A DNA stretch of 64,000 bases. Origin: Macrostomum lignano (Eukaryota). Positions within the stretch are counted from its first letter, which is position 1, and each line of letters begins with the position of its first letter. The stretch lies in contig NIVC01002373.1 of NCBI GenBank assembly GCA_002269645.1, positions 75,674 to 139,673 of the forward strand, written 5' to 3'. A program made the position numbers and the translations under genes. The notes under the pieces are model-generated. The model had not been told where the DNA came from. It worked only from the letters and a program-made list of their open reading frames with translations, and ran no database searches. Of this stretch, positions 40,484 through 62,894 are shown piece by piece.

Positions 40484-43400
40484 ATGTCATTGTTGCTTAA
40501 CATCGTCGACTTCGATCCAAAAAAGCCAAAGAAGCTAACCAAAGTCAAAGACAAAGACAAAGTAAATAGGGATCATCAAAATTCTAAAAATGGTGATGAA
40601 CAGCTTAGGAAAGCTGAAAAGAAGGCATCAAAAAGCAAAGAAAAACCAGAAAAGGTAGGTCAACCAACGTTTAATGCATATAACATTTTTATTATTGGCA
40701 TGCTAGCATCTTATTCTTAGTGCCAGCAAAAACCCAGTATCTAGGTGATTTGACACTGAATTTTCTATTGAAATATCTGATACCAAAACATATAGCATCA
40801 TAGTATGAAGGGCATACTAAAAGTTTTGAGATACACTAAAACCACAAAAGTCTAAGACAAAATTTCTGTCACAAATTTTTTAATCTGAAAAATATTAAAA
40901 AATTCATTTTAAAGCATAAATTTCAAGCTTTCTGGGTTTTTAAAGCTCATAATAAGGCATTTGAATAAATCTTTGCATGTATCAATTTTCTGCTATAAAT
41001 AGTATAGGTGAAAAAGCAAAAAATCAATCAAATTATTAACCAAAAGGCAGTTGTTATTTGTCCGGTGACTGGACGAATAGTGATGTGGTTATTTGTCCAG
41101 TTACTAGATCCTGACCATGCTTTACTATTCATCCGGTTAATACCAGACAAATAAACATTTTGTTATTTGTCCGGTTAAATTGATAATGCTAAAATATCTA
41201 GTTTATAAAAACCACAAGGGTAAATATTCCTAGACTTCAAAGACTTCTTACTCGTGTCTTGATTATTATATTGTTATACTAGTGTGTGTCTTATACACCA
41301 AATTATGCCAAATTGAATACACTGCTTTGCTTACACTCAAGTAATACAAGAAAATATTAATCAGTATACGAGAAAAGGTCTTAAAAGTCAAGAATATTCA
41401 TCACGAAACAAATAAGATATTTGTGTTAGCAATTTAACTGGACAAATAGCAAAAAGGCTATTTGTCCAGTCACCAGACAAATAACAACTGTCTAACCAAA
41501 ATGGGTCCCCCAAAAAGGTTATTAATTGTTGCAACACTGGCATAGATTTGAGAGTATGAGCGAACACTTAATTTTTTTGGTCTGCATTTGTAATTATTCA
41601 ATTATTGTTTGAGCATGCACTTAGCATGATCTAGAGTATGGCTTTCAAACTAAGTCCCAAACAGTTAGCTCTTCATCAAAGGGAAAAGAAAAAATTATAG
41701 GATGCTAGGTTGATTTTAAATATTTCACCAACTAGACTTTATTCTTGGCCAAAAATGCCAATGTTTCAGCAGCTATGTATATTGGAATTGTTAGGCCTAT
41801 AGTGTAGCAACAGGCCATTAAGACTGTTAGTTTAATATGTAGCCAGTGTCTATACTAGGCCTATGCATTGAACACAAGCAATAGGGCCTAGGAACTAGTT
41901 GATATACTAGTAAATTGACTATCTGCCTGTCTTGGAAGGCCATAGTTGCCAAGTAGCCAGCTTGGCTAAAAAAGTCACCCTTATCTGTTTCCTTATGCTG
42001 TGGGCCTACTTGACCTTTGTTAGAATCGCATTATGTGCCAAATTGTTAATTGCTACTTGGTTTCTAGATTGTATTGGTAGACCCAGGTCTCATTGTGGTG
42101 ATCTCTCAGCATTGCTTTGAGATACCAGAATTGAATATTTTGAGCATGAACTTGCACCAATGCATCCTCTCCATTTTTTGGTCCTCTGTCAAGTTGTGGG
42201 GCACCTAGTGAATACCACTTGGAGGCTCCTAGCTTGTTGTGCAAGATGTTTGTAACTACTGCCAATCCAATGCCAAGAGCTTCTCTGGTTGATTTTGGCA
42301 CAAGTCATTTGTTGGTCTTTGTCAATCATTCTCTAGACAGCAATGATGTTTTTGTCTATGACTATAGAAGCTCGATATCCCATCCAAGGTTTGTCATCAA
42401 GGCTGCTTTGGCCCTACTTATATTTGCTAGACTACCAAAAAACTGCTGGCATAGTCTCCAAAGACAGCATATAAACTTTCAATGCATTACTTTTGTGTGA
42501 GACCTTTTTGCTAGTCATGGCATACCCTATAGGAAAAAGTTTTAAAACCGCGGACGGTGTCCGGCGCACTTTTGAAAATTTTCTAAAGCGCAGCGCGCGC
42601 ACAGGCGCATCACCTGCACGCGCGCTGCCCTTTCTTACTGGCTGCTGCTCTAGCAAATACATATACATGGAAATGGGTATAATACCCCTGTTGAAGGGGC
42701 TTATACACTCGTAATTTATTAAGCTTAGAGATGTTCCGAGAATTCAATTTCAATTTTCCAAAATTTGAAATTTTTTAGAGCGAATTTCAATTTAGAAAAA
42801 AATTTAGAAGTGAAAATTTTGGTAGTGTCTAAAGAGTCGCTAAAAATAAACTACTTTCTACTACATATACATGTATTACTTTTTGCTTAAGCAGTAAATT
42901 GAAAGTAAAAAAGTGAGTGTTGATCATACTAAACTTTGTTTTTCTGAATTATGATTTCGGGAAATTTCAATTTTGATTTTGGAAAGTTAGCAAATTTTGA
43001 TTTCGACAAAACTGCAGATCTTTCGGAACATCTCTAATAATCCTAAAGCGCAGTAAAATAGTTTGACTCTTTCTAAAGTGCGCGTCCGCGGGTTTTTAAC
43101 ATTTATTCCAATAGGGATGGCATAGAAGTTATTATTTGTTAACTCCATTGGAGCAAGTACAGTTTGATAGAAGGTATTGACTTTAAAGAGTAATTGTGAA
43201 AAATTGACAAGAGTGCAAAGGCTGAAAATTTATACCTAATCATATTAAGGGTGGTAGAGTATGTATTTAAAAATTTGTATAGATTTGACTTATGAGTCAG
43301 CCATATCTCAAAATTTTTAGTATACTCCTTGTATCTATAATCAAAATAGTGGCTTTTGCCATGGATAATTCTAGTGTATATAAACTATTACTAATTTATT

Positions 43401-45989
43401 TAGTGCATAATCATAGCATATAATGTGGTTTCTAGTGCACATAGTGCTTAACCTTTTTTGACAAGTTTATTGTAAAATATATGGGCTAATTGTTTGTTTA
43501 TCTTATTTGCATTTATTAGGTATTTAATTTCTTTGTATATTCTCAAAATTGGACAACTATTTAGAATCAAATTGAATTAACCAAATATTCAGCTTGAATT
43601 AGAACTGAGAAGTTGGCAATCTGAAGATTTAAAAGTTGCTTTAATATAGGCAAAGATTTGGAGCAAATCAAGAGTTAAGTATTTGTATTATGGCTTACAA
43701 GTATAAATAAAGGGAAGGAATTGGGGATATATTAATTAGGAGATTAAGGGCTGAGAAGTTTGTATTTGAAGAATTGAGAGTTTTAAGGATTGTGGAATTG
43801 TGGCTCATAAATGAAAAATGGAATTTAGGATAGGATAACATGTGGAATGTCTTGAAGAAAGGCAGGGGTGCTTAAGCAGTTTTGAGCACATTGTGCTTAG
43901 ATTAAGTAGTGAGGCTTTTGGAGGCTTTAAGGCTTTAAGAGCCCTTGAGGCTTTAGGAGAAGTGGAGCATTAGGAATCAAGTTTATAGAACTTGGATTTA
44001 GGGGTATTAATTCCCACAAATTTGGAGGGATTTAGTTGGAATTTTTTCTGGGTGAATTTCATTGGACAAGAAGTAAAGATGCAAGCCTTTTGGTTGAGGG
44101 CTGCTAAAGGTAATGTGGCTGAATATTAAATGCCATGTGTTTCTAGCAGTGAGTATACATGTAGCTAGACACCCTATTGGAATAAAAGTTGAAAACCTGC
44201 AGATGCGCGCTTTAGAGTAGAGTCAAATTATTTTACCTTGCTTTAGCATTATTAGAGATGTTCCATTGCAATTGACGAAATTGTCCATTTCAATCTGTCG
44301 AAATCAAAATTCGATAACTTTCCGAAATTGAAATTGAACTTGAAATTTTCCAAAATCAAAATTCAGAAAAACAAAGTTTAATATGACTAACACTTACTTT
44401 TTTACGTTTTGATTTACTGCTTATGCAAAACAAAATACATGTATATGTAGCAGAAATTACTCGCTGTCTATTTTTAGCCACTTGACACTTTCGAAATTTT
44501 GACTTCCAATTTTTTTTAAAATTAAAATTTGCTCTTAAAAATTTCGAATTTTGGAAAATTGAAATTGAAATTTTGGAACATCGCTAAGTATTATAAATGA
44601 CAAGTGTATAGGCTCCTTCTACAGAGGTATTAGGACCCCTTCCATGTATATTATTTGCTTGAGCAGCAGCCAGCAAGGAAGGGCACCGTGCGCGCGCACT
44701 GCGCTTTAGAAAAATTTCAAATGTGTGCCGGACGCTGTCTGCAGTTTTACAACTTTTTCCTATAGGGGCTAGACATTCCACACATGTTTAATCATTGTAA
44801 TTCATGGTTTTACCAAAGTGCTCACCTGTGTGGCAGTTTTTTTGAGAAAATGGCAGCAAAAAAGCAACTTGCAACAAATGTTGGAACTTTTTGTCTTTAT
44901 GAATAAAGATTTTTATCATTGTTCCTTTAAGTATATTCTACTTATAAATGGAAAAATGAAAGTCAGTCCATATTTATAATTGCTTTGATAGCCATTTATA
45001 TAGAATGAATTCATTTAACTATCAATTAGCACTACTGGCAAGTGATTAATGAGTAGTGAGGTGGGCATATTATTGACAGAAATATTTGTATTTGGTATTT
45101 TTCAGTATTCAAATTGGTTCTGTCAGATATTTGAATCTGACATGGAATCAGTTCAAAAATTTTATATGACATGGGATACTTAAAACAAAGAAACAAAATA
45201 AGGATATAGCTATTGTTTGATTGCCTTTCAATAGCTTTCTTTGCTTCATAGAAAAAATCCAATTATTAATTTCTTTTATTAAAGATACTAAAGTACAATG
45301 TGTGTTCCTATCTCTGTCATATATTTTGGAAGTCTGACAAACAGACAATTTGCTATCCATCTGTTTCTACTAACTGCAAAAAACTATGAAGCTTTGCTTG
45401 TCTCGACATTAAGGAATGAAAAATGTGTTGAAAAAGTTGAAAATCAATACTTTACCTTAAAGCCTGTACTTTTTGCCAGAAGTAAACGCTGTAGTGGCTT
45501 TGTTAAAATTCAAATCTGTTTGTAAATGTCAATCCACTGGAGATAAGTGCATTTACTATACTTGTAAAATCATCTTTATGACATGTAGTTGATCCTACCT
45601 TTTCTAATACAAGTATAACTCATTTGTTAAATGGAGTTACAATTTTATTTTTATTGTTTTTGTATGTGGAGAATTCTTTTACTCAAAAGTACTTAGCAGT
45701 GAGGGGACTGAAGCCTTTGCCTGCACTTTCAACTCCTTAGGCTGCTCAGAACAATGCAAAGCGCAAGCTGTCTGCAGCCTCAGCGGCCACCGAATCCCCC
45801 GCGCCAAAGAAGTTCAGGCCAGAGGCTCCTAAAGGAACCGCAATTAGGAAGAAACTGTCCAAAACTGATGAGGCGGCGGCGGGCCCAGCTTCCGTAGCCG
45901 CTCGCGCCGGAAATTTGGAATTCGAATCGGCGCCAGCGGAGCAGCGGGAGAAGCGGCAGCAGCTGCAGACTCAGCAGCGACATCAGTAG
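40484..45989 (+). CDS. Putative host Lys-rich gene: exons 40484-40654 and 45741-~45984/45989 around a transposon-filled intron
   Basis: A phase-0 AAG|GTAGGT donor and a phase-0 CCTTAG| acceptor give ..KSKEKPEK|AAQNNAKRKLS..APKKFRP.. open up to the Polinton boundary. No recognisable domain. Confidence 0.4.
41046..41492. mobile_element. Non-autonomous DNA transposon, Mutator-like (9-bp TSD)
   Basis: ~35-bp TIRs GGCAGTTGTTATTTGTC.../...GACAAATAACAACTGTC; TSD TAACCAAAA at 41037-41045 and 41493-41501. Confidence 0.8.
41540..43148 (-). pseudogene. Degenerate mariner transposase, interrupted by a MITE
   Basis: Fragments in mariner order: MELTNNNFYAM, EALGIGLAVVTNILHNKLG, NETWVYQYNLETK (cf. DETWVYQYDPETK), LASYNFFLFPLMK (cf. 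LAPxDFFLFPxLK). Many stops and frameshifts. Confidence 0.75.
42525..43116. mobile_element. ~590-bp composite MITE (copy 1) with nested hAT-like MITE at 42726-43036
   Basis: TIRs CCCTATWGGAA..; 8-bp TSD ATGGCATA (42517-42524 and 43117-43124); inner TIR TAGAGATGTTCCGA. Confidence 0.85.
44172..44767. mobile_element. Same composite MITE family (copy 2, opposite orientation), nested hAT-like MITE at 44253-44586
   Basis: Reverse-complement homolog of copy 1 with its own 8-bp TSD GCTAGACA (44164-44171 and 44768-44775); inner TSD AGCATTAT/AGTATTAT. Confidence 0.85.
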
Positions 45990-46551
45990 TATACGTTTTT
46001 TTGACACAAAGCCGATTTCCTTATGGCGAAATACATAGTAAGTACAGGCCCAAAAAAATGGCAGAGTCCGAAATTTCATGTGCACGCAGTCTGAAATTCC
46101 GTGTGCACGCAGTCTGAAATTCCAAGTGCACGCTAAATATCTTTTACGCAACGTGATTATTCAGACGAATTGCATATCCACCTGTCCAAAATACAAGTAA
46201 CCAATTCTAACAATGGTGACACAAACACACTTCAAAGGATTCCATTCAAGACAAATTTACTCCAAAGCTATTCACACATTTCAAGTGTTATTGAAATATT
46301 GAAAACTTGCGAATATTATCACCCTTTTGAAGAAAGATAGTAAGTGATCTATTCTTGAGTGCCTATAGAATTTTTGCACCAACTTGAGCAGATGGTTTAC
46401 AGATACTATGTCAACAACCACGTCAACATGCTTCTTCTTTACTATATATATATATATATATATACGAACACACTGACACAGAAAATATTCAATAACTCAA
46501 ACCAAGTATACATTATACTACTTGTTCAACTATACGTACATCTTAAGAGAA

Positions 46552-47487: not shown

Positions 47488-48015
47488 AAAGACATTTTTT
47501 CTAAATCTTCATCAAATTTTGCCAGCAATATGTCCAAGTAATTGCTCTTTTAGTATATATCAAACAAGTATGTAATCAATAATATAATCTCTATAAATTC
47601 ATTATTCTAAAAAATTCTCTCAATTTTATTCATCATTCATTGAAATTATTTAATTCAATATAAAGTCAATATCCTGTACAGTTATCATTAAACAAAAATA
47701 TTAATCCATGCAAATAAACTTTTTCAATATTCTTAAACTTGTATTAAATGCTTCTTTAATTTTTTTCTTACAAACTAAAAATGTAATAATGGTACATATT
47801 TAACAACAAAAAATTATATACAGTATTTAACTACAGTTACACTAATCAATAAAAATGATACAGTAATACAAAAATACTAAAACACAACACAAATGCAAGT
47901 AAATATATAATCATAAAATGCTAGTTTACTTTTGCAAGAAAAATATTAATACAACAACACTCCACTCAGGAAAACATACAAAAATATTAAAGCAAATAAT
48001 TGTAATAAAAGAAAA

Positions 48016-48052
<37 letters not shown>

Positions 48053-48460
48053 AAATATTTACAAAATTGTAATCAAATCCACATAAGACAAGAATTAGTA
48101 AATAAAAAACTAAATATTTTCAAATATTAAATGTACTAATTAAGTTTTTGTTTAAAAAATATACTATTTGCTTTATTATACACTATATATTTTTCTCCAT
48201 CTATTGGGTTTAATATTTCTAGTGATCAAAGCTTTTTAAACAATCATTTTCTAGGTTTTATAAAAAATATATAAAAAAGTTATATGTCTAAATGCTTCTT
48301 ATAATTTTTATATAATGAATGAAAACTATGAAAACTATTTTTTATTACAGTTAATCAACAGAAAATAAAGGAGATAGGCAACTTTTGAAAAAGTAAATAA
48401 AAAGTAAAAGTAATTTCAGTTCGAAAAAGAAAGCGTCAAAAATAAACACAATCAAAGTAA

Positions 48461-49014
48461 TCAATTAGCAACTAGAGTTGCGTCCGAATCTATGGTTGAT
48501 TCCTCTAGCCTACTCAAGCCATGCTGAGTGCTTGCAACTTCTGCTTGATTTAATCCATATGGCGTCGATGTAACTATTTTAGCTATTCGACGAGGAGACT
48601 GCCAGTTGTCATTGTCAATTGTGCCCGAGGAAGAACCACAATTGGTAATAGGTGCTTTATTAGGAGTTACAGCTGACACACTTGTCAATGCCGTCTCTTC
48701 CATCATTTTAGTACCACCAGTAGCAGGTGAACTAAAAGTAATTGAAAGACAGTTAACTTTTAATTAATAATATTCTTTTTACAGTGTATCAAAGCCAAGA
48801 CCAGAAAAATAGCTTACATGCTCTTCTTCCAATATCGCAATCGAAATGCGACAACAACAACGCACATGACAGCAATGACAGCTACAATAATAACCTGAAC
48901 CAGACCAATTCTTTCGGTTTGGCTCACTAATTTGTCGATATTGCTCACTAGCTTACTAATAGATTCCGCATTTCCCTGAACTAAAATTACAACTTTATTA
49001 GTTTGGGGTACCAT
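48461..49014 (-). CDS. Spliced single-pass membrane protein (exons 49014-48818 and 48731-48461; a further 5' exon is possible)
   Basis: TM segment IGLVQVIIVAVIAVMCVVVVAF followed by basic RLRYWKK. An 86-bp GTAAGC..TTTTAG intron joins the two ORF-track ORFs in frame. Confidence 0.6.
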
Positions 49015-49334
49015 TTTCTTCTAAACTAAATAAAAATATGCAAGACAAACAAAAGAAATTCTCTAAAATAAAAGGCACACCTATAACAATAATCCAGCTC
49101 TAGACTCTAAACTATGAATCAACGTAAAGAAAATCTCCGTTTCAAAAATAAATTTTTTATTATATAAATATAACAAAAAATCGTAAACTAATACTTTGTA
49201 ACTAATTAGAAATATTAAGTTTGCCAACTGTTAAACTTAAATACTTGAGCAAAATATAGGTATGGATGTAGGTACGATTAGCTACATTAATTTGTAAAAA
49301 TTATCTTTCTTAAGCATGCGGAAAATACGTTTCT

Positions 49335-50065
49335 TTAGCCATGGTCTGGCTTTTGCCTCATGATTTAGCCGTATGCTCCGACTTTTGCCTCAACAGTATG
49401 ATTTAGTCGTATGGTCCGACTTTTATCCCAACAGTATGATTTAGCTGTGGTCCAGCTTTTACCTCAACAGTTTTTTAGCCGTGGTCCGGCTTTTTTTGCA
49501 ACAGTATTATTTAGCTGTGGTCTAGCTTAAAACTGAATCAACAGTGATTTAGTTATAGTCCAGGCTTAACTACCTCAACGATGATTTAGCTATAGTCCAG
49601 GCTTAACTGTCTCAACAGTAATTTTAGCTGTAGTCCAGACTTAACTGCCTCAACAGTGATTTTAGCTGTGGTCCAGGCAACTGTCTCAACAGGGATTTAG
49701 CTGTAGTCCGATTAGCTTAACTGTCCAGTTATTTAGCTGTGAGCCAAGCAGCAGCACCCGTCTCAACAGTGAGAATTAGCTATGGTCAGCTTTACCTCAA
49801 CTGTGATTTGGCTGCTGTGGTCTAGCATAACTGACTCAACAGTAATTTTAGCTGTAGTCGTCCAGCTTAACCACCCGTCCAGTTTTATAACCATGGTCCA
49901 GCTTAACCACCGTCTCAACGAACAGCGATTTAGTCGTGGTCCAGCTTAACCGTCTCAACGTACAGTGATTTAGCCATGGGTCTAGTAGCAATTAACCGTA
50001 TCAATAGTGATTTAGCCGTGGTCCAGCTTAACTGTCTCAACACAGTAATTTAGCTTAGTCCAAAC
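49335..50065. repeat. Degenerate ~37-bp tandem array between divergent viral genes
   Basis: Roughly 19 imperfect copies of ATTTAGCTGTGGTCCAGCTTAACTGTCTCAACAGTG. Confidence 0.9.
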
Positions 50066-50678
50066 AGCATTTGTGTGTCAACTGCACTGACTGCATGCGG
50101 TTATAGCAGCGGCAGTCATTATAGTCCCAACAAGCTGCGCGTCGCAGCATGATAGTGTAACTCTATATAGCTTCTGCTCAATATAGGACTGCAAAAGCTG
50201 AGTTGCAACTATACCTTTTTCTGTTTGAAAAGTAACACTCTATATATAGGTTACTCAAGCAATCTCTTGTCATCGTGCGAGCTAAAAAATTCCAACATGC
50301 AAGCAAAACTTTCAATAAATTAATTTCATAGCACCGCGTGCAGCTTATTTTTACTCTAAAATCCAAGATTGCTAATTTTTCAAGTCGCAAAATATTTTAA
50401 TTACATTCTACTTGAGAACAAAACCAATCTAATGAAGCAACAACCAGCAGTCTTCTTATTAAACGCTTGCCATCGTGTTACTCTTGCAAATTTATAACTA
50501 GTGTGCCTAAGATTCATTAATTTTATTGTATAAAATATCAACCTGCATTTGCGTAAAATTAGACCTAATTGTGCAACCCACAATAGAAACTTATGCCACC
50601 TTTGGCACGCAACATGCCTTAATCAGCACGCAACAATTAAATTTGTTTACTAGTTCACAAACAGCATGCAATGCTTGC

Positions 50679-50686
50679 TATAAATA
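50679..50686 (+). promoter_or_regulatory. Canonical TATA box (TATAAATA) upstream of the SSB-like gene
   Basis: Located 86 bp before the ATG at 50765. Confidence 0.4.
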
Positions 50687-50764: not shown

Positions 50765-51991
50765 ATGGCAGCTTGCATCAAGACGGAGTCAATTGTACGC
50801 TCCGACTCGAGTCCGATTTTCTACGTTGGAGAGCAGTCTACAACCACGACTGGTTCGTCCTGCCAGTTTCGATCTATTGCGTGGAAACCATCAATCGAGT
50901 GTACAAAATGGTACCCAATTATATTGCAAACCAAGGCTCCAATGGAGCTTTTTCGTGGAATCGCAGAAAGGCCAGAGCTCGATCATCCGTCTTGCAGACA
51001 CGACTCTCGCGACGCAGTAAGTGTCCAATTTCATCCAGACAGCTGCGATAAGGAACTCTTCCACTCTCTCCGGTGAGCACCATATTTAATTTATACAATT
51101 AATTTTAAAAACTTTTAAAAATTTAAAAAACAAATATTCATAATTTATATAATGTTTTGCAGTCAAGTCGAAAAAGGTCTATCGGGCAAGTTGAACGAGA
51201 TTCAAGATGCTCGACCCTTGGCACGACTAACAAAACCAGCTCATCAGCATGCTAACGACGTCCTCGAGTTTGTGCCTCAACAATGGCTGGCTATAAAGCC
51301 TGCTTACCCTTGTGCCACAATCAGGATCAGCAACGATCATCCACACGGGAAGGAGGTGTCCATTTCCGATTTCAAAGGTGTCAGCGGTACCTACCAAATG
51401 ACAGTGCAAGCAACGAGCTTGTATTGTCCAAAAGGCAGCCTCGTCTGGCGCATTACATTCGCTGTGCGCTCTCTAACGCTCATAGAATCTTCCGACAACA
51501 TGTTGCAGCGCCTTGACATGTTCAAGGGAGTGCTTGCACACCTACCTGCGACCAAGCCAGCAATTAGAAGCAGGAGTCCGTCCCCAACGTCTACCCATGA
51601 CCAAGAAGAAGCAGATGAACAAAGCCGGCAGAATTCAAGCCAGGTGACGCCTGCCAAGTCACCTGCAAAGCGTCGGTCTACCACCACCGTATCGAAGAAG
51701 TCGACTCCATCGAATGCAGCGCCAGCATCTATTGAACCGGTGGCTAAAAAGCAAGTTCGCAAACGCAGCGGTGCAAAACAGCAAAACAATTCTGCCGAAG
51801 CTGGTGCAGATGGCACAGACTGGGTGAAGGCACCACCAGCAAAGATCTTGGTGAGTACACCTGCCTCTGGAACCCGGGTAGCGTCCAAGGAGACAGCATT
51901 TTTAAAGCATGCTGCTGCTGCTGCTGCGGACGCTACTACAGCTAGCGTGTATTCATCGGACGATTCGTACAGCAGCTCTGATGATGAGTAA
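50765..51991 (+). CDS. Spliced gene (50765-51072 and 51163-51991, ~378 aa), putative OB-fold ssDNA-binding protein with acidic tail
   Basis: A 90-bp AT-rich CG|GTGAGC..TTGCAG| intron joins two ORFs in frame. IILQTKAPMELFRGI..AVSVQF..VQATSLY...WRITF resembles T7 gp2.5/NCLDV-type SSBs, and the protein ends SSDDSYSSSDDE. The function is inferred. Confidence 0.55.
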
Positions 51992-52199
51992 CAAAATTTT
52001 TGACTAATTTTATCCAAGTTTTAACTAACTTAATTCCACTATATTTATCAAATTTTTGGCTAGGGAAATATTATTTTTAGGGAAAAGCTCAAAACATTTT
52101 TGCTACTCCTTGTACGCCAACCAGGTTTTGTTACTTAATATTAGAATTTACAATAGTATAGTCTTGTTAATTTTTTTTATTATTTACTTTCCGTTTTAG

Positions 52200-52757
52200 C
52201 GACTTGTCCTATTAATAGTTACTGCGAGTCTGAAGCTGCGTCCGTTTGAAAAATTTGATTTAAAGCAGACCAAACAGAAGCTACAGACCAGAAACCGGTT
52301 TTGCAAACTATTCCTAAGCCGACCAACAATGCTAAAGACAATTTATTCAAACGCAAAAATCCAACTTTATCCAGCAGGAAAACTAACTATATATGGCTGT
52401 AAATCAAATTCTCAGATAGTTTCAGTTTTACGATTTATCAACGATACTATTAATTGTGTAGATTTTGATTCAGTAAAAATTCAGAGCAGTACCTATGTCG
52501 GCTTTATTGGTCATCTTTGGCCAAAATTCGGTTTCTCTAGTCTAAAAAGATATGCAGGCTACTATTCGAATTATCTGGTTGGATACGATGCAGAAAATTT
52601 CCCACAAGCAGTTTCTGTTAGATCAAAATCAAAACCAAGACTTTTTTGTAACATATTTTTTTCGAAAAAGTTTGTTATTATGGGCGTTCAAAACACTCAT
52701 GAATTGAATAATATTCTTAACCATGTCAAGGATTTTTTAATCTCTGTTAATAACTAA
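52200..52757 (+). CDS. Divergent TATA-binding-protein-like domain (3' exon; the frame is open 43 codons upstream of the annotated ATG)
   Basis: Colinear with both TBP repeats: IVTASLKL..KFDLKQ (NIVSTVNL.CKLDLKT), IQLYPAGKLTIYGCKS (LIFSSGKMVCTGAKS), FDSVKIQS (FLDFKIQN), YDAENFP (YEPELFP), KPRLFCNIFFSKKFVIMG (KPRIVLLIFVSGKVVLTG). Confidence 0.75.
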   Translation, partial: RLVLLIVTASLKLRPFEKFDLKQTKQKLQTRNRFCKLFLSRPTMLKTIYSNAKIQLYPAGKLTIYGCKSNSQIVSVLRFINDTINCVDFDSVKIQSSTYVGFIGHLWPKFGFSSLKRYAGYYSNYLVGYDAENFPQAVSVRSKSKPRLFCNIFFSKKFVIMGVQNTHELNNILNHVKDFLISVNN

Positions 52758-52976
52758 ACTTAACAAGTAAACAGTTGCTGTCAAATCGCAGTTGCGATGC
52801 ATTATTTTACAAACATTTTGTCTTGTTTTCATTTCTTTACCAATTGTTTTCTCTAATAGTAAACGTGCCAGCTATAACCCAATCTAACTAACCAAATCAT
52901 CATTTTTCTTACAGCCGCAAATGACAAACCGGATCATCTATTAATATTATGCTCGATACGCTCGTTGTCGAGCTAG

Positions 52977-53693
52977 GTGCACACAATGCCGCGTGCACAA
53001 TGTCAAATCTGCAGAAAAAAGTTCAGCAATCAAGCTGAGCTGCATGCTCACTCGCATGGTGATTGTTTTTCGCCGGAACGATTACTGGTCGGATCACTGC
53101 AAAACCTGATCGAAAACCCACCAGATGGATGGTCCATCACTTTGCGCGAGTCAGCTCATCGTGGTCGGGTAAATTTTGTCGAATTTACTCCCACTCTTGA
53201 ACAACAAGACAGCAGCTCTGGCGAGTTACTTCCTGGCGAGTTGATTGCGTCTTTAAGAGGACTAATATTTAAAATATTGGAAAAAATTGGCTCACCTAGT
53301 TTATTAATAAGAGTCTGCTTTCACTTGAAAGTGACACTTTTTCGACCGAAAGCAGCAGCAGACGACAACGATGGCTCGAGCAGCGAAGAAATCATCTCGG
53401 TCTATTTTAATACCAACATTGCGACAATATCATTTGATGAGACGATTGCAAACAGTGACATGCTGTTATCTCCCGAGGCCTACAATGACTGGTTCGCACG
53501 CGTTATTAATCAGCTATTAACAAAAATAGACAATTTTCAATCTCGAGGCAGTAATTGGCAATATAGAGCAATCGAGCAGCTAGACTTGATGCTCTGCATT
53601 TATCGCAAAAGCCATGCAACCACACTGTTAACAAATACGTCCCACGATGGTGTGGGAGCGGGCGGCGGGGGTGGTGGTGGTGGTGGTGGTGGT

Positions 53694-53731
<38 letters not shown>

Positions 53732-56700
53732 GCGCGGCGAGTCCGGTCCAGTCCGGTCCGGTCCAGTCCGGTCCGGTCCGATTAAACAGCGAGCGTTTAA
53801 AGTTCCACTCTCAATCGGGCGCAAAGCTGGAGCAGTACTGCTTCTAAAGCCGCACAGAGCAAATCAGTACGACTGTTTTCGCTACTCAATATTGGCGAGT
53901 ATATTTCATCCTTGTGTGCAAGATGCGAAAAGGAAAGACAGCTATGTGCAATGGATGAGAGAATTTAATTTTGGTCGACAAGCTAATGGACCAGCTCGCC
54001 ATTCAAGTAGATCGTACAAAAAATTCTGCCGACGCAATCCGAGAGTTAGTCTACGAGTATTTGTGTGGGATCACGACACCAAGACGAGCACATTATTTTA
54101 CTCGCACAGAAGCAAATATGATGGCGATCGTTATTTTGCGAGCTGTCTGTTTGTGCCGCGGTATGACGATTTTGAATTTGGTCATTATTTACCAATTCGC
54201 AATTTGAACCGGTTATTGAGCAAGCGAGGTAAACAGCGACGATATTGTCCGGAGTGCACGGCTTCGTTTCCTTGCTCAACTTCGTGGGACTATATTCTCA
54301 AGGAGCATTGCTGTGAAGGTGGTAACGTGTCATCATCATCAGCTTCTAATATTGAATGGAGTTCGGATTTTGTGCCTCAAATCCGCGAGATTCGCCATCG
54401 ACCACAAGAAGTAATGCCGAAACCAGAAGACGCAATTTTAAAATTTAAATCACACGAGGCAAAACTGCCTTCGTTGTATGTCTTGTACGCAGACATGGAA
54501 TGTCTATGTGCACCTGCAAATAATGAAGCAAATGTAAAAAAGACTTGTAATTCGAAGCCGCTTGAAGTCCACGTACCAATTTGTTTGGCCTATCGTCTGA
54601 TAACTTGCCAAGGTTTGCAACTGACACCAAAACTAGCTGCAGCAGTTGGAATGGGCGACAAAAAACCTTGTGGAGTAATTTACTCGCAAAAAGATGGTGA
54701 GAATTGTGTTCGACTGTTTTTACGCAAACTTCAGACCATTGCCAGCGAGATTTGTCTGCATGCTCAGACTGAGACGTTTACTCCCTTGCTACGTGAATAT
54801 CTCAATATTAAATCCAACAAGAAGCTTCAGCAGACTTGCCAACTATGCAAGCGAGTATTTGACAAGACTGAAAAAACTGTGCTGGACCATTGTCACTTGA
54901 CTGGTTTGCCTCGTGGCATAGTTTGCGTCTCGTGTAATCGAAAGTTAAGTTTAAAACGATACCGATTGATTGTCTACTTTCACAATTTGGCTGCCTACGA
55001 TGGTAAATTTCTTGTGCGAGAGATTTACAACGTGTTTTCTGGAAACAGTGTTCAACTAAGCGTGCTACCAGAGACTCGTGAACGCTTCAAGACGTTTTCG
55101 CTAAAGTTTACATTGCCAAGTAATCAACACAAGAATGGCTTTGTGCGGTTTGAGATTTGTTTCAAGGATACTTTTGCCTATTTATCGACAAGTTTGGCTA
55201 CTCTAGCCGATCGACTGCTTCCCGAGCAACTAGTGCATACAAAAGAGTTGTTAAAAACGTATCCAAAGTTGGAGCTGGCAACTCTACGACAAAAGGGAAT
55301 CTATCCCTACTCTTTTTTGGACTGCGAGGAAAAATTGGACAATGTGACACAGTTACCGCCGAAGGAGAATTTTTTCAACAAGCTTACAATGTCGCACTGC
55401 ACGGAAGAAGATTATGGTCGAGCTTGTGTAGCTTGGAATCAGTTCGAGTGTCAAAATCTTCGAGATTATACAACAGCCTATTTGTTGCTTGATGTACTGC
55501 TGCTATGCGACGTCTTTGAAAATTTTCGTCAGACTGCGCTGCGTGAATATGGTCTCGATCCGACTCACTTTTTGGGTGCACCGATGTTTAGCATGGTAGC
55601 CTGCCTGTTGCGGGTAGACGAGCCAATAAAATTGTTTACCGACGCATCTATGTATGCCGAAGTTGAGTCCTCCATTCGAGGCGGTTTCAGTTTTGGAACG
55701 CGACATGTAACGACGGCCAATAACCCGAGTGTAGCAGAGTACAGAAGCGAGTTTGATCGACTTGATCCGGACTTTGAAAGCTTGCGAAAAAATGCACCAT
55801 ATGGAACTTATCTAGCATACTTGGACGCTAATTCGCTCTACTCAAGCTGCATGATTCAACCTTTACCAGTTGGCGATTTTTTATGGCTATCACGCGATGA
55901 AATTGGGAACATTCCAACCGATAGTGCGAGTGCAGACTATTTGGAAAGCCCAAGTGTTAAAAGTCAACTATTGGATTGGTTAGACAAGTTTTGTAACGAC
56001 GAACAAGGAGCAATGTTCACTGTGGATCTATATTATCCTCGCTTCTTGCATGACTCGACAGCAGATCTTCCGCTTGCAATTGGTCACGAATTAGTTGGCG
56101 AAGACCGACTTAGTGAACAGATGAAACTGGACTGGTTTTGCCTTCAAAGAGAACTCAATCCAGATCGTTTTGAAAACGCAACAAGCTATGGTGATGTGAA
56201 AGCTTTCAGCAGCTCGACGCGAAAATTGATTGGGTCTGTGCTTCACAAAAAGAAGTATGTTGTGCATCATCGAGCTCTTCGATTGTATCTAGAATTGGGA
56301 ATGCGCGTAACGCGTGTTTACCGCGTAATTCGATTTACAGAACGACCAATTTTGCGATACTATATTGAACACAATATTGAGCGGCGTAAAGTAGCAAAAA
56401 CTGAATTCGAACGCGACTTTTTCAAGTTGCTAAATAATGCTCTTTTCGGAAAGTTTCTGCAACGAGTTCGCGATCGACTCAATTTCCGCATGTGTTCAGA
56501 AGCTGAAAAATTGGAGAAATATGTTTCTCGAGAAGATTTTCTTGACGTAGTAATTTATAATGAAAGTCTGGCAGGAGTTAGCCTCGCTCCACGTCGTGTT
56601 GCGCTAGACAAACCGATTATAATCGGTGCTGCAATCTTAGACATTGCAAAGACTCTTGTATACGACTTTTATTACAATCATGTTCAGATTCATCATTCAC

Positions 56701-57224
56701 TAGCAAGTGCTCGGGTACTCGCAGGAGATACTGATAGTCTTATGCTGGCTCTAGTTATGCGTAAACCGGACGAGACTCCTTACGATACCTTGTTCAAAGA
56801 TTTGGCAGAAGAAGGTTTGCTAGACACGAGTAACTATTCACCATCGCATGCTCTGTACTCGACAAAGCACAAGGGTCGACTTTTGGCGTGGAAAGACGAG
56901 TTTAAAGGTTGTATACCACTGGAACTGGTATTTTTGCGACCAAAAAATTACTCCTTCGTGTATGCCAATGGAACTATAGATCAAGTCTCGCGCTGCAAAG
57001 GTGTCTGCAAGACTGTAGCACAAAGTTTAAAGCATCAAGACTATTTGAGAGTTTTGCACAAGCGACAACTTGTGTTTTCGCGCATGCAGTCGATTCGTTC
57101 TAGAAAACAGAAAGTTTTTTTAATGCAACAAAGAAAACTTGCACTAAGTTTTTTCGACACGAAGCGATCTTGGACAGACTGCATCGATTCGCTGCCCTTT
57201 GGTCACTGGCGCTTGACCAATTAA
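52977..57224 (+). CDS. pPolB: Protein-primed family B DNA polymerase with N-terminal Zn finger/terminal-protein region and endonuclease VII-like insert
   Basis: Exo I YADMEC, Exo II FHNLAAYDG, Exo III YLLLDV, Pol A YLDANSLY, Pol B KLLNNALFGK, Pol C GDTDS. CxxC..DHCHLTGLPRG..C..CN is an EndoVII-like motif. Confidence 0.97.
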
Positions 57225-58124: not shown

Positions 58125-58544
58125 ATGTCTCCAGCGAAAGATCGAGGTTTTAAAAAGAAAAAGAAGAGCAGTCGTATAAAGAAGAAATCTATTAGAAAGA
58201 TTAATAAAAAGCAACAAGGTTTTGGTGTCGTAAATTGGTTAATTAATCATTTACCATTTGAAGCGCATTTACCCGGCGGATATCAGTTTTGTGGTCCAGG
58301 TACGCAACTGCAAGCTAGGCTAGCAAAAGGACAACGAGGAATCAATCGACTTGACAATTTGTGCATGCTTCACGACGTGGCCTATGATAAAAATTCGGAC
58401 GTGCAAGAGAGATTAAAAGCTGATAAGCTATTAGAATCTGGTGCACGAGAAATTGCCCACGATCCGTCTACTGGTTGGAAAGAAAAACTAGCTGCGAAGT
58501 TGGTTACCAAGGTTATGCAAGTTAAGCAACGCTTTGGTGCTTGA
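58125..58544 (+). CDS. Parvovirus VP1u-type phospholipase A2 domain protein (adintovirus PLA2-like)
   Basis: Ca-binding loop YQFCGPG and catalytic DNLCMLHDVAY; basic N-terminus. Confidence 0.9.
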   Translation: MSPAKDRGFKKKKKSSRIKKKSIRKINKKQQGFGVVNWLINHLPFEAHLPGGYQFCGPGTQLQARLAKGQRGINRLDNLCMLHDVAYDKNSDVQERLKADKLLESGAREIAHDPSTGWKEKLAAKLVTKVMQVKQRFGA

Positions 58545-58546
58545 AA

Positions 58547-59236
58547 ATGCAGCAGCCATACAATATGCAACTAGCTCACGATTCTACATTTATTATTGCT
58601 GGACCTTCAAACTCGGGTAAAACTGAATGGACGTTGCGTTTGTTGACTGAACGAAAAGAATTATTTGATGAAAAACCGCGTCGTCTTGTTTGGTGTCATG
58701 GATCAAGTTTGAAACCAGACGATCAACAACGAATTAGAACATGCTGGCAAAAGAGCGGTCTTGACCCTATTGTTTTTGTACCCGAATTCATACCACAGAT
58801 GATTAATCGTTTTTTACCACACGATTTGGTTGTTGTTGACGACTTGCAAAGCGAGATTGCTAAGTTGCCAGAATTTACTAGTATGTTTACAAAGCATGCG
58901 CATCATATCCCTTTGACTTGTCTGTATCTTTGTCAAGGTCTTTTTAACAAGTCTGATCCCGAAGCACGCATGCGAAGTTTATCAGCTAGTTATATTTGTC
59001 TAACTCGTAGTGTGCGCGATCGAACCACAGTTGAGCATCTCGGTCGACAAATGTATCCGCGTAATAGTAGGTTTCTAGTGAATGTGTATGAAGACGCAAC
59101 AAATAACAAACCTTTTTCATATTTATTCATTGACCTGCGACAAATGACACCCGATTTTTTACGATTGAGAACAGGAATCTTTCCTGGCGATGAGCAAGTT
59201 GTCTATACTCGTGAATGTGATGCAAAGTTTGTGTAA
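58547..59236 (+). CDS. A32/FtsK-like DNA packaging ATPase
   Basis: Walker A GPSNSGKT, Walker B LVVVDDL, FTKHAHH, RSLSASY, YLFIDL. Confidence 0.95.
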   Translation: MQQPYNMQLAHDSTFIIAGPSNSGKTEWTLRLLTERKELFDEKPRRLVWCHGSSLKPDDQQRIRTCWQKSGLDPIVFVPEFIPQMINRFLPHDLVVVDDLQSEIAKLPEFTSMFTKHAHHIPLTCLYLCQGLFNKSDPEARMRSLSASYICLTRSVRDRTTVEHLGRQMYPRNSRFLVNVYEDATNNKPFSYLFIDLRQMTPDFLRLRTGIFPGDEQVVYTRECDAKFV

Positions 59237-61564: not shown

Positions 61565-61753
61565 ATGTCATCTATCTGCCAAAAACTTTTGATTCGTCTC
61601 TGTGAGTTTTTTTGCTTAAAATCCGAATGTGTGCCGTTTCTGGGAGAGGAGCACAACGAGGATACTGACGGAAATTCGATCGAGGCTTCGTTCTTTTGTT
61701 GCAATTGGCATACGAATAGCATCAATCTAACTCATGATGAAGCGAGTGCGTAA
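61565..61753 (+). CDS. Small Cys-containing ORF (62 aa)
   Basis: ATG is 61 bp after a TATAAGC motif; overlaps the integrase start. Confidence 0.3.
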   Translation: MSSICQKLLIRLCEFFCLKSECVPFLGEEHNEDTDGNSIEASFFCCNWHTNSINLTHDEASA

Positions 61754-62894
61754 GGAAATTGAAGAATTTTTGACGGATGCTTTTTTTAACTTGAACAAAC
61801 CTACTTCATTTAGTGGTAACAAGACTATACTTGTTCGTGAAGTGCGTAAAAAGTTTCCACAGATTACGAACAAAGTTGCGAAGCGCGAAGTTGATAATTG
61901 GGTGCGATCAACAAATGAGCATCATTTATTTCGAAAAACACGACGAAACTTTCCAACTCCAAAAATTAGTGTACCACCAGTTGCAAAGTTTCAGTTTCAA
62001 ATCGATTTGGCAGATTTACCTCGATACAAGACGGAAAATCGAGGTTATCGTTACATACTTGTTCTGATTGACTGTTTTACTAGAGTTGTACGACTAAGAC
62101 CATTGCGTACAAAGAAGCCTTCAGAAGTTAGTCAAGTATTACTAGAGATTTTTCGAAGTGGTTTTAAGCCTGTTTATTTACAAGGTGATGCTGGTATGGA
62201 GTTTCTCGGAAGAGCTACACGTCAAATGCTGAAACAGGAAGGAGTTCGATTTTTTGTTAGCCAAAGCAATTACAAGGCAAGCATGGCTGAACGATTTATC
62301 CGCTCGCTAAAGGAGCGTCTATTACGATACTTTCGAGCAAAAAATTTACCTCGATGGTTTGATATTTTGCCACAATTGGAAGATAATTTCAACTCTAGTC
62401 CTCATCGATCCTTGAGTGGAGAAACACCAAAACGTGTAGAGACAGACCCACATTTACAAGGAATTTTGTGGGACAAAATGTTTGCGAAGTCGTACACTAA
62501 AAAGAATGAGAATAAATTTAAAGTTGGTGATTGGGTTAGAATTACACGACGTCGAGGAACATTTGAAAAAGGATACACTACGAGTTGGAGTAATTCAAAA
62601 TATCGCATTCACCGTGTACACTTGACAGAACCGCCAATGTACGAATTAGCGGACCCTGAAGATGGATTTGAAGTGCTGAAAGGAAGGTTTAACCAAGCGG
62701 AACTAATGTTGGTAAACGAGACAGATGAAACACCTAATGAAATTGAAAAAGTTATTGAAACTGATCGATCGAAAAATGGAAGTCGTCTGTATCTAGTAAA
62801 ATGGAAAGGTATGCCAATCTCAAGAAGTCAGTGGTTAAACGAAAAGGATCTTGACGCAAAGACTGCTAAACTATTTTCTAAAGTGTATAAGTAA
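61734..62894 (+). CDS. INT: Retroviral-like DDE integrase with C-terminal chromodomain
   Basis: FQIDLAD, LQGDAGMEF, KASMAERFIRSLK; chromodomain EIEKVI..YLVKWKG...SQWL. Confidence 0.95.
   Translation: MMKRVRKEIEEFLTDAFFNLNKPTSFSGNKTILVREVRKKFPQITNKVAKREVDNWVRSTNEHHLFRKTRRNFPTPKISVPPVAKFQFQIDLADLPRYKTENRGYRYILVLIDCFTRVVRLRPLRTKKPSEVSQVLLEIFRSGFKPVYLQGDAGMEFLGRATRQMLKQEGVRFFVSQSNYKASMAERFIRSLKERLLRYFRAKNLPRWFDILPQLEDNFNSSPHRSLSGETPKRVETDPHLQGILWDKMFAKSYTKKNENKFKVGDWVRITRRRGTFEKGYTTSWSNSKYRIHRVHLTEPPMYELADPEDGFEVLKGRFNQAELMLVNETDETPNEIEKVIETDRSKNGSRLYLVKWKGMPISRSQWLNEKDLDAKTAKLFSKVYK

Follow-up and report, generated by a model that had tools for sequence, protein, structure and literature searches.

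The locus at 50765-52757 of the window (the whole 64,000-nt stretch of Macrostomum lignano contig NIVC01002373.1 analysed here; genes and signals lie on its forward strand unless stated) raises the question of whether one gene can encode both an SSB-like protein and an SSB-TBP fusion. The original prediction proposed that removal or retention of a second intron decides between the two products, by analogy with early-to-late switches in DNA viruses. We lean towards regulated choice of an internal splice donor that would yield a short form and an SSB-TBP fusion. That the choice is an early-to-late switch is a tentative guess by analogy, and on balance somewhat doubtful.

A multi-copy Polinton/Maverick-type element, in which this locus is gene number one, spans from ~45985 to past the end of the window. 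Its left end begins with AGTAGT (45985-45990), which we take to be a Polinton terminus; this left end is common to the copies, and similarity between them starts at 45982-45985 in 5/5 copies fetched. Pfam matches identify as element genes a protein-primed PolB (pPolB; 52986-57224; PF03175, 3.7e-20; PF02945, 1.4e-11), a dUTPase, a PLA2-like gene, an adenovirus pX-like domain and a retroviral-type rve integrase with a chromodomain (61731-62894; PF00665, 5.3e-8; PF00385, 3.1e-7), pPolB and the integrase being expected of a Polinton/Maverick. A Walker A motif within 58526-59236, a region with no significant Pfam match, marks a candidate packaging ATPase. The element resembles the Polinton/Maverick (adintovirus-type) elements of animals in its pPolB, rve integrase, PLA2 and pX-like domain (PLA2X is described in the accessible part of PMC8502044), but differs from them in that its SSB-like gene contains an intron, its TBP-like exon lacks an ATG and a leader trans-splice site precedes pPolB. 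When the genome (764 Mb in 5269 contigs) was searched, the 2.3-kb region gave at least 46 matches, at least 30 of them full length at 95-100% identity. A segment of ~1.6 kb at 47725-49333 occurs in the window copy and in copy L067 and is missing from the 4 other fetched copies. Degenerate tandem repeats of 36-40 nt occupy 49340-50070, 5' of the gene, and are also found in other copies. Outside the left end, an imperfect inverted-repeat element of ~2.2 kb lies at 42525-44767, and the N-terminal part of pPolB contains in-frame poly-Gly and GPVRS repeats (53661-53780).

Recomputation reproduced the predicted coordinates, frames and products. The exon pieces measure 308 nt (phase 0), 688 nt (phase 2) and 558 nt (phase 0), and none contains an internal stop when read separately; joined without interruption they form 1554 nt (517 aa plus stop), while the intron-2-retained form has 1137 nt (378 aa plus a TAA at 51989-51991). 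A TATA-like box at 50679-50685, 86 nt before the ATG, is a candidate promoter by motif match. Exon 1 (50765-51072) encodes the first half of a likely SSB-like domain and equals the first 102 aa of database record P0012. Intron 1 (51073-51162; 90 nt, GT..AG, phase 2, 16% GC) has its donor at the equivalent position in 6/6 families of related loci. The shared part of exon 2 (51163-51850) encodes the second half of the domain, a linker and a conserved P-x-K-x-L end; the linker is basic and of low complexity, as had been proposed (18 K/R against 9 D/E in 101 aa). Next comes the internal phase-0 donor TTG/GTGAGT (51848-51856, cut at 51850/51851), a predicted alternative 5' splice site on the grounds of its conservation, and behind it the short-form tail (51851-51991), 46 codons with a Ser/Asp/Glu end before the TAA, which is also in P0012. 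This tail had been called acidic; the acidic residues do cluster at its end, but overall it is only modestly acidic (7 D/E in 46 aa). An AT-rich spacer (51992-52199, 25% GC) with a pyrimidine tract leads to the acceptor TTTTAG (52199/52200), which, like the donor, is as originally described, and to the ATG-less TBP-like exon 3 (52200-52757; 185 codons, two repeats). The first in-frame ATG of exon 3 (52329, codon 44) falls within the first TBP repeat, and a stop separates the in-frame ATGs at 51909, 51981 and 51984 from exon 3. For exon 2 and one given phase, chance would supply 0.14 GTRAGY and 0.03 exact GTGAGT sites. From the window alone the internal donor is weak evidence; its weight comes from conservation across families.

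Expression was assessed in 8 of 24 listed runs, as assembled contigs only (7 guessed to be RNA, and X17, which is DNA-like). These contigs are shallow (mostly 3-50x, rare forms dropped), and uncovered stretches (e.g. 52033-52445 in X1) and contig ends at 52014-52032 were not counted as evidence. The intron 1 joint, 51072>51163, is present in 4/8 runs (X1, X9, X10, X5), and in contigs of X1, X9 and X10 the sequence runs unspliced across the internal donor. Record P0012 is identical to the 378-aa form across both exons, and the database proteins that match the short product at 98-100% identity carry the label Macrostomum lignano. The short form predicted from intron retention is thereby established as real. 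The fusion junction, 51850>52200, was seen in 0/8 runs of these shallow contigs, as was any other joint from 51850; two joints nearby (51929>52158 and 51946>52178) were rejected, having no GT..AG ends and looking like divergent copies. A fused protein was found in none of 337 longer database candidates, in none of 8000 scored database sequences (4 matches, short forms only) and in none of 1.84 billion sequences (6 matches of 201-375 aa). Since contigs bridge the donor, P0012 is identical and neither fused protein nor junction was found, the short form is the common form in these samples. The fusion is either rare, made only under certain conditions or not made at all, and contig depth cannot discriminate among these. 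The alternative-splicing claim was thus borne out for intron 1, the short form and the conservation of the intron 2 sites, but not for the fusion junction.

The first domain is likely an SSB, with ssDNA binding predicted. No sequence match to it was found in Pfam, PHROG or PDB. Its Atlas neighbours are viral, with leads at 0.86-0.92, and include DUF2738, DUF5871 and Pox_I3 clusters at 0.86-0.89, which are presumably SSB families. A model of the exon-2 half-domain was too poor to judge the fold (pLDDT 58, best Z 4.2, best viral E 0.3). An acidic C-terminal tail is a feature of T7 gp2.5-like viral SSBs; one is present in the short form, and most families have similar ends. The window protein resembles T7 gp2.5-like and poxvirus I3-like SSBs in its beta-rich domain, acidic end and place before the polymerase, but differs in giving no Pfam, PHROG or PDB sequence match, in its long basic linker and in a predicted exchangeable C-terminus. 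T7-like SSBs have been described from related DNA viruses (PMC11253617, accessible sections). Of the two domains originally proposed, the OB-like one stands as a lead only, from the Atlas neighbours and the poor half-domain model, whereas the TBP-like one was upheld by Pfam, PDB profile, model and Foldseek.

Modelling and profile searches confirm exon 3 as a two-repeat TBP fold. It matches Pfam TBP (PF00352) at 2e-7, its model has a pLDDT of 89, all 40 entries among the Foldseek matches listed (E<=0.001) contain TBP, and so does every one of the 35 PDB sequences matched in a profile search. The whole TBP core apparently lies within exon 3 in both model and PDB profile; upstream residues therefore would not be needed. 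In TBP, four Phe intercalate into DNA. The second repeat has F134 and F153, invariant in 10/10 sequences and aligned with the Phe of TBP FPG and IFxSGK, but the first repeat has Tyr at the matching places and no Phe, so exon 3 is classed as TBP-like and not as a canonical TBP. Compared with TBP (PF00352), it shares the two-repeat saddle fold and the second-repeat Phe pair, but is only ~20% identical and has no start codon of its own. A divergent Giardia TBP without the key Phe favours ssDNA (PMC12209930, available portion), and TATA binding by the TBP-like exon is therefore not to be assumed. The exon has no match in UniRef or NCBI and seems to escape gene annotation, so similar TBP-like genes may be missed elsewhere.

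Both intron 2 splice sites are conserved in other copies, as the original prediction required. They are unchanged in 25/25 close loci, of which L001 is the window itself and two are 87-88% identical; the three frames are all intact in 18 of the 22 close loci covered. A protein search added five families, making six with the window's. The families are 29-46% identical to one another in TBP and 27-42% in exon 2; a single sister pair is closer (62-64%), which leaves five deep lineages. Intact members have the order exon 1, intron, exon 2, TBP-like, pPolB; eight further loci are decayed or are fragments without downstream genes, and L063 repeats the L036 family. A phase-0 Leu/GTRAG donor occurs at the equivalent motif in 6/6 families, and [PA]-x-[KE]-x-L-V-S is coded with Leu/GTRAG in 18/18 further loci, a count that leaves out L048 and L051, stretches without the upstream gene. 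In 6/6 families (one representative each) the reading frame stays open past the donor, giving a tail of 42-50 codons; the TBP frame likewise starts with a phase-0 YAG/Arg and no ATG in all six, and the spacers of the six representatives are AT-rich and 138-490 nt long. The last ~165 aa of exon 2 contain only 5 invariant residues, and 4 of these are the K and L preceding the donor and the V-S at it. Elsewhere, Val-Ser pairs are coded GTRAG in 4/33 cases, conserved Ser columns are all-AGY in 0/7 (5 switch between AGY and TCN) and four-fold columns are all-purine in 6/35, while the Leu preceding the donor uses 4 different codons and synonymous sites look saturated. Because these controls differ from the donor, its bases are under selection beyond that on the protein, and the read-through tail is kept coding as well. 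The nominal Fisher p of 6e-5 for the donor is overstated (too small), since the families are related by descent and 6/6 are not independent trials. In two outside database relatives, P0001 and P0002, the protein letters ahead of the domain are likewise ...LQ, which is what a CAG acceptor would give. Long TBP frames in relatives were considered as intron-less SSB-TBP fusions and rejected, being C-terminal extensions instead. No relatives were found in metagenome or viral contigs. Two truncated L036-family copies, L055 and L056, end ~6 codons past the internal donor and continue in foreign sequence.

The absence of an ATG had been read as an argument for fusion. It holds in all families, but a rival had been missed, in that the host spliced leader could supply the start. 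The trans-spliced leader of Macrostomum lignano ends in ATG, and part of it appears in one X10 contig as a 23-nt loose end of foreign bases ending at the AG acceptor before pPolB (52900-52914; PMC5173321, accessible sections). Given these leader bases at 52914, the element uses host leader trans-splicing, as observed in this one contig. The site, 52914/52915, is 715 nt downstream of the 52200 acceptor, and a leader added at 52200 would open the ATG-less TBP frame in frame with Met. The lack of an ATG and the phase-0 acceptor alone therefore do not favour fusion. The arrangement resembles flatworm spliced-leader ORFs, in which a leader ending in ATG joins a phase-0 acceptor of an ORF without its own ATG, although those are host genes, whereas here the element is virus-like and the leader is seen only at the pPolB acceptor. 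The leader part has 58 genomic matches against 0 for a control. A leader RNA gene was not found among the 8 of 58 matches read, which all continue with G and have a GT donor in 0/8, and Rfam held nothing relevant. Seven of these eight copies (L027-L034) have a common flanking context that does not resemble a leader RNA gene, and L027 resembles a retro-copied trans-spliced mRNA. The pPolB ATG (52986) is preceded by short ATG frames at 52921 (7 codons) and 52949 (29 codons), which could damp pPolB translation.

The leader brings in the most serious alternative, an operon of two cistrons in which the TBP-like protein exists only as a stand-alone product with its Met from the leader ATG, and the donor motif is never joined to 52200. 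The motif would then be maintained for U1 binding, which would allow transcription to continue beyond the 3' end of the first gene, a read-through role that comes from other systems. Phase 0 at 52200 exactly fits the leader ATG, exon 3 is predicted to fold alone, and the fusion junction is missing from all 8 runs. Leader-supplied initiator codons are documented in flatworms (PMC9851317, available text), the spacers are near the reported operon distances of 200-1,000 bp, and cis-splicing is strongly suppressed at operon-resolving acceptors (PMC12582326, available text). Against this, no leader at 52200 is among the loose ends listed for the 8 runs, all but seven of the total, and an operon explains neither the conservation of P-x-K-x-L up to the donor nor the donor's phase 0; we judge it unlikely.

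Base-level conservation reveals a donor but not its partner, and so the donor might join another acceptor or make a non-coding or decay-bound transcript that tunes the levels of the short form or pPolB, with no stable fusion protein. A joint to 52915, for example, would not be in the pPolB frame and would extend the protein by 9 codons only. Yet the nearest strong acceptor is in frame in 6/6 families, with an exon behind it that has no start of its own, and the 8 runs show no joint leading out of 51850; we judge such a use very unlikely. Least credible is coincidence, in which P-x-K-x-L-V-S would matter only as a motif in the short-form protein and GTRAG would be inherited codon inertia: a conserved Ser does need two changes to leave AGY, the families do share descent and a donor in exon 2 would not be a rare chance event, but 5 of 7 other conserved Ser columns have switched class and none is all-AGY, synonymous sites look saturated, and the TBP exon would still need a start codon.

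Under the regulated donor choice that we favour, splicing of intron 1 gives the 378-aa likely ssDNA-binding protein, and the conserved internal donor would likely swap the 46-aa tail for the TBP-like exon to give the 517-aa fusion in a minority or stage-specific transcript. A conserved in-frame donor and acceptor with both frames open, as seen here, would be expected of an alternative 5' splice site or composite terminal exon. The simplest reading that uses all the evidence is a composite terminal exon, in which the donor at 51851 would compete with 3'-end formation behind the stop at 51991. Read-through with an end after the stop would be the default and would leave the tail on the protein, whose predicted role is in replication by pPolB, as for T7 gp2.5-type SSBs. 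Splicing would instead tether the first domain, by a basic linker of ~100 aa, to a divergent TBP, and the fusion is predicted to bind the element's own promoters or termini. The pPolB mRNA would likely be cut from the same long transcript by spliced-leader trans-splicing, and a leader-started stand-alone TBP may be a third product. Fusion and leader-started TBP are not mutually exclusive, because cis- and leader-splicing often share acceptors in parasitic flatworms (PMC12582326, available text). The fullest version, in which one Polinton locus makes a tailed SSB, an SSB-TBP fusion and a leader-started TBP by cis- and trans-splicing at one acceptor as a replication-to-late-expression switch, is distinctly unlikely as a whole; if true, the fusion would tie transcription initiation to replicating single-stranded viral DNA.

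In polyomavirus small t/large T and in secreted/membrane IgM, a donor internal to a coding exon decides whether the protein ends in a short read-through tail or continues into a downstream exon. The layout here is the same, with unrelated proteins and with a spliced product that is demonstrated there and predicted here. Internal-donor choice is thus already known in viral early genes, and the joining of SSB to TBP appears new. A TBP-like gene is mentioned only in a figure legend on MELD viruses, in a section on non-animal datasets, and nothing on its splicing or fusion occurs in the accessible parts of PMC8502044 and, for the mention, its preprint. Neither an SSB-TBP fusion nor leader trans-splicing in Polintons was reported in the titles and abstract beginnings covered by a limited literature search; PMC10748475 and 10.64898/2026.06.19.733378 contain no TBP or SSB term. 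A literature search also found no description of the timing or control of Polinton expression. To our knowledge, no mechanism for either has been described. If the favoured reading is true, splice choice would equip Polintons with their own transcription factor and provide a concrete point of control. Both leading readings would be new to the literature searched, one as an SSB-TBP fusion and the other as a viral gene with a host-leader start codon.

A deoxynucleoside kinase accompanies the TBP frame in some families. At L040:1640-3019 (- strand) it is fused in frame to the TBP frame (Pfam dNK, 6e-24; 460 aa in all). In L036 and L038 it comes after the TBP frame but in a different reading frame, in L037 it lies behind a stop, and the window's family lacks it. 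If the donor is used, the L040 family would produce an SSB-TBP-kinase protein.
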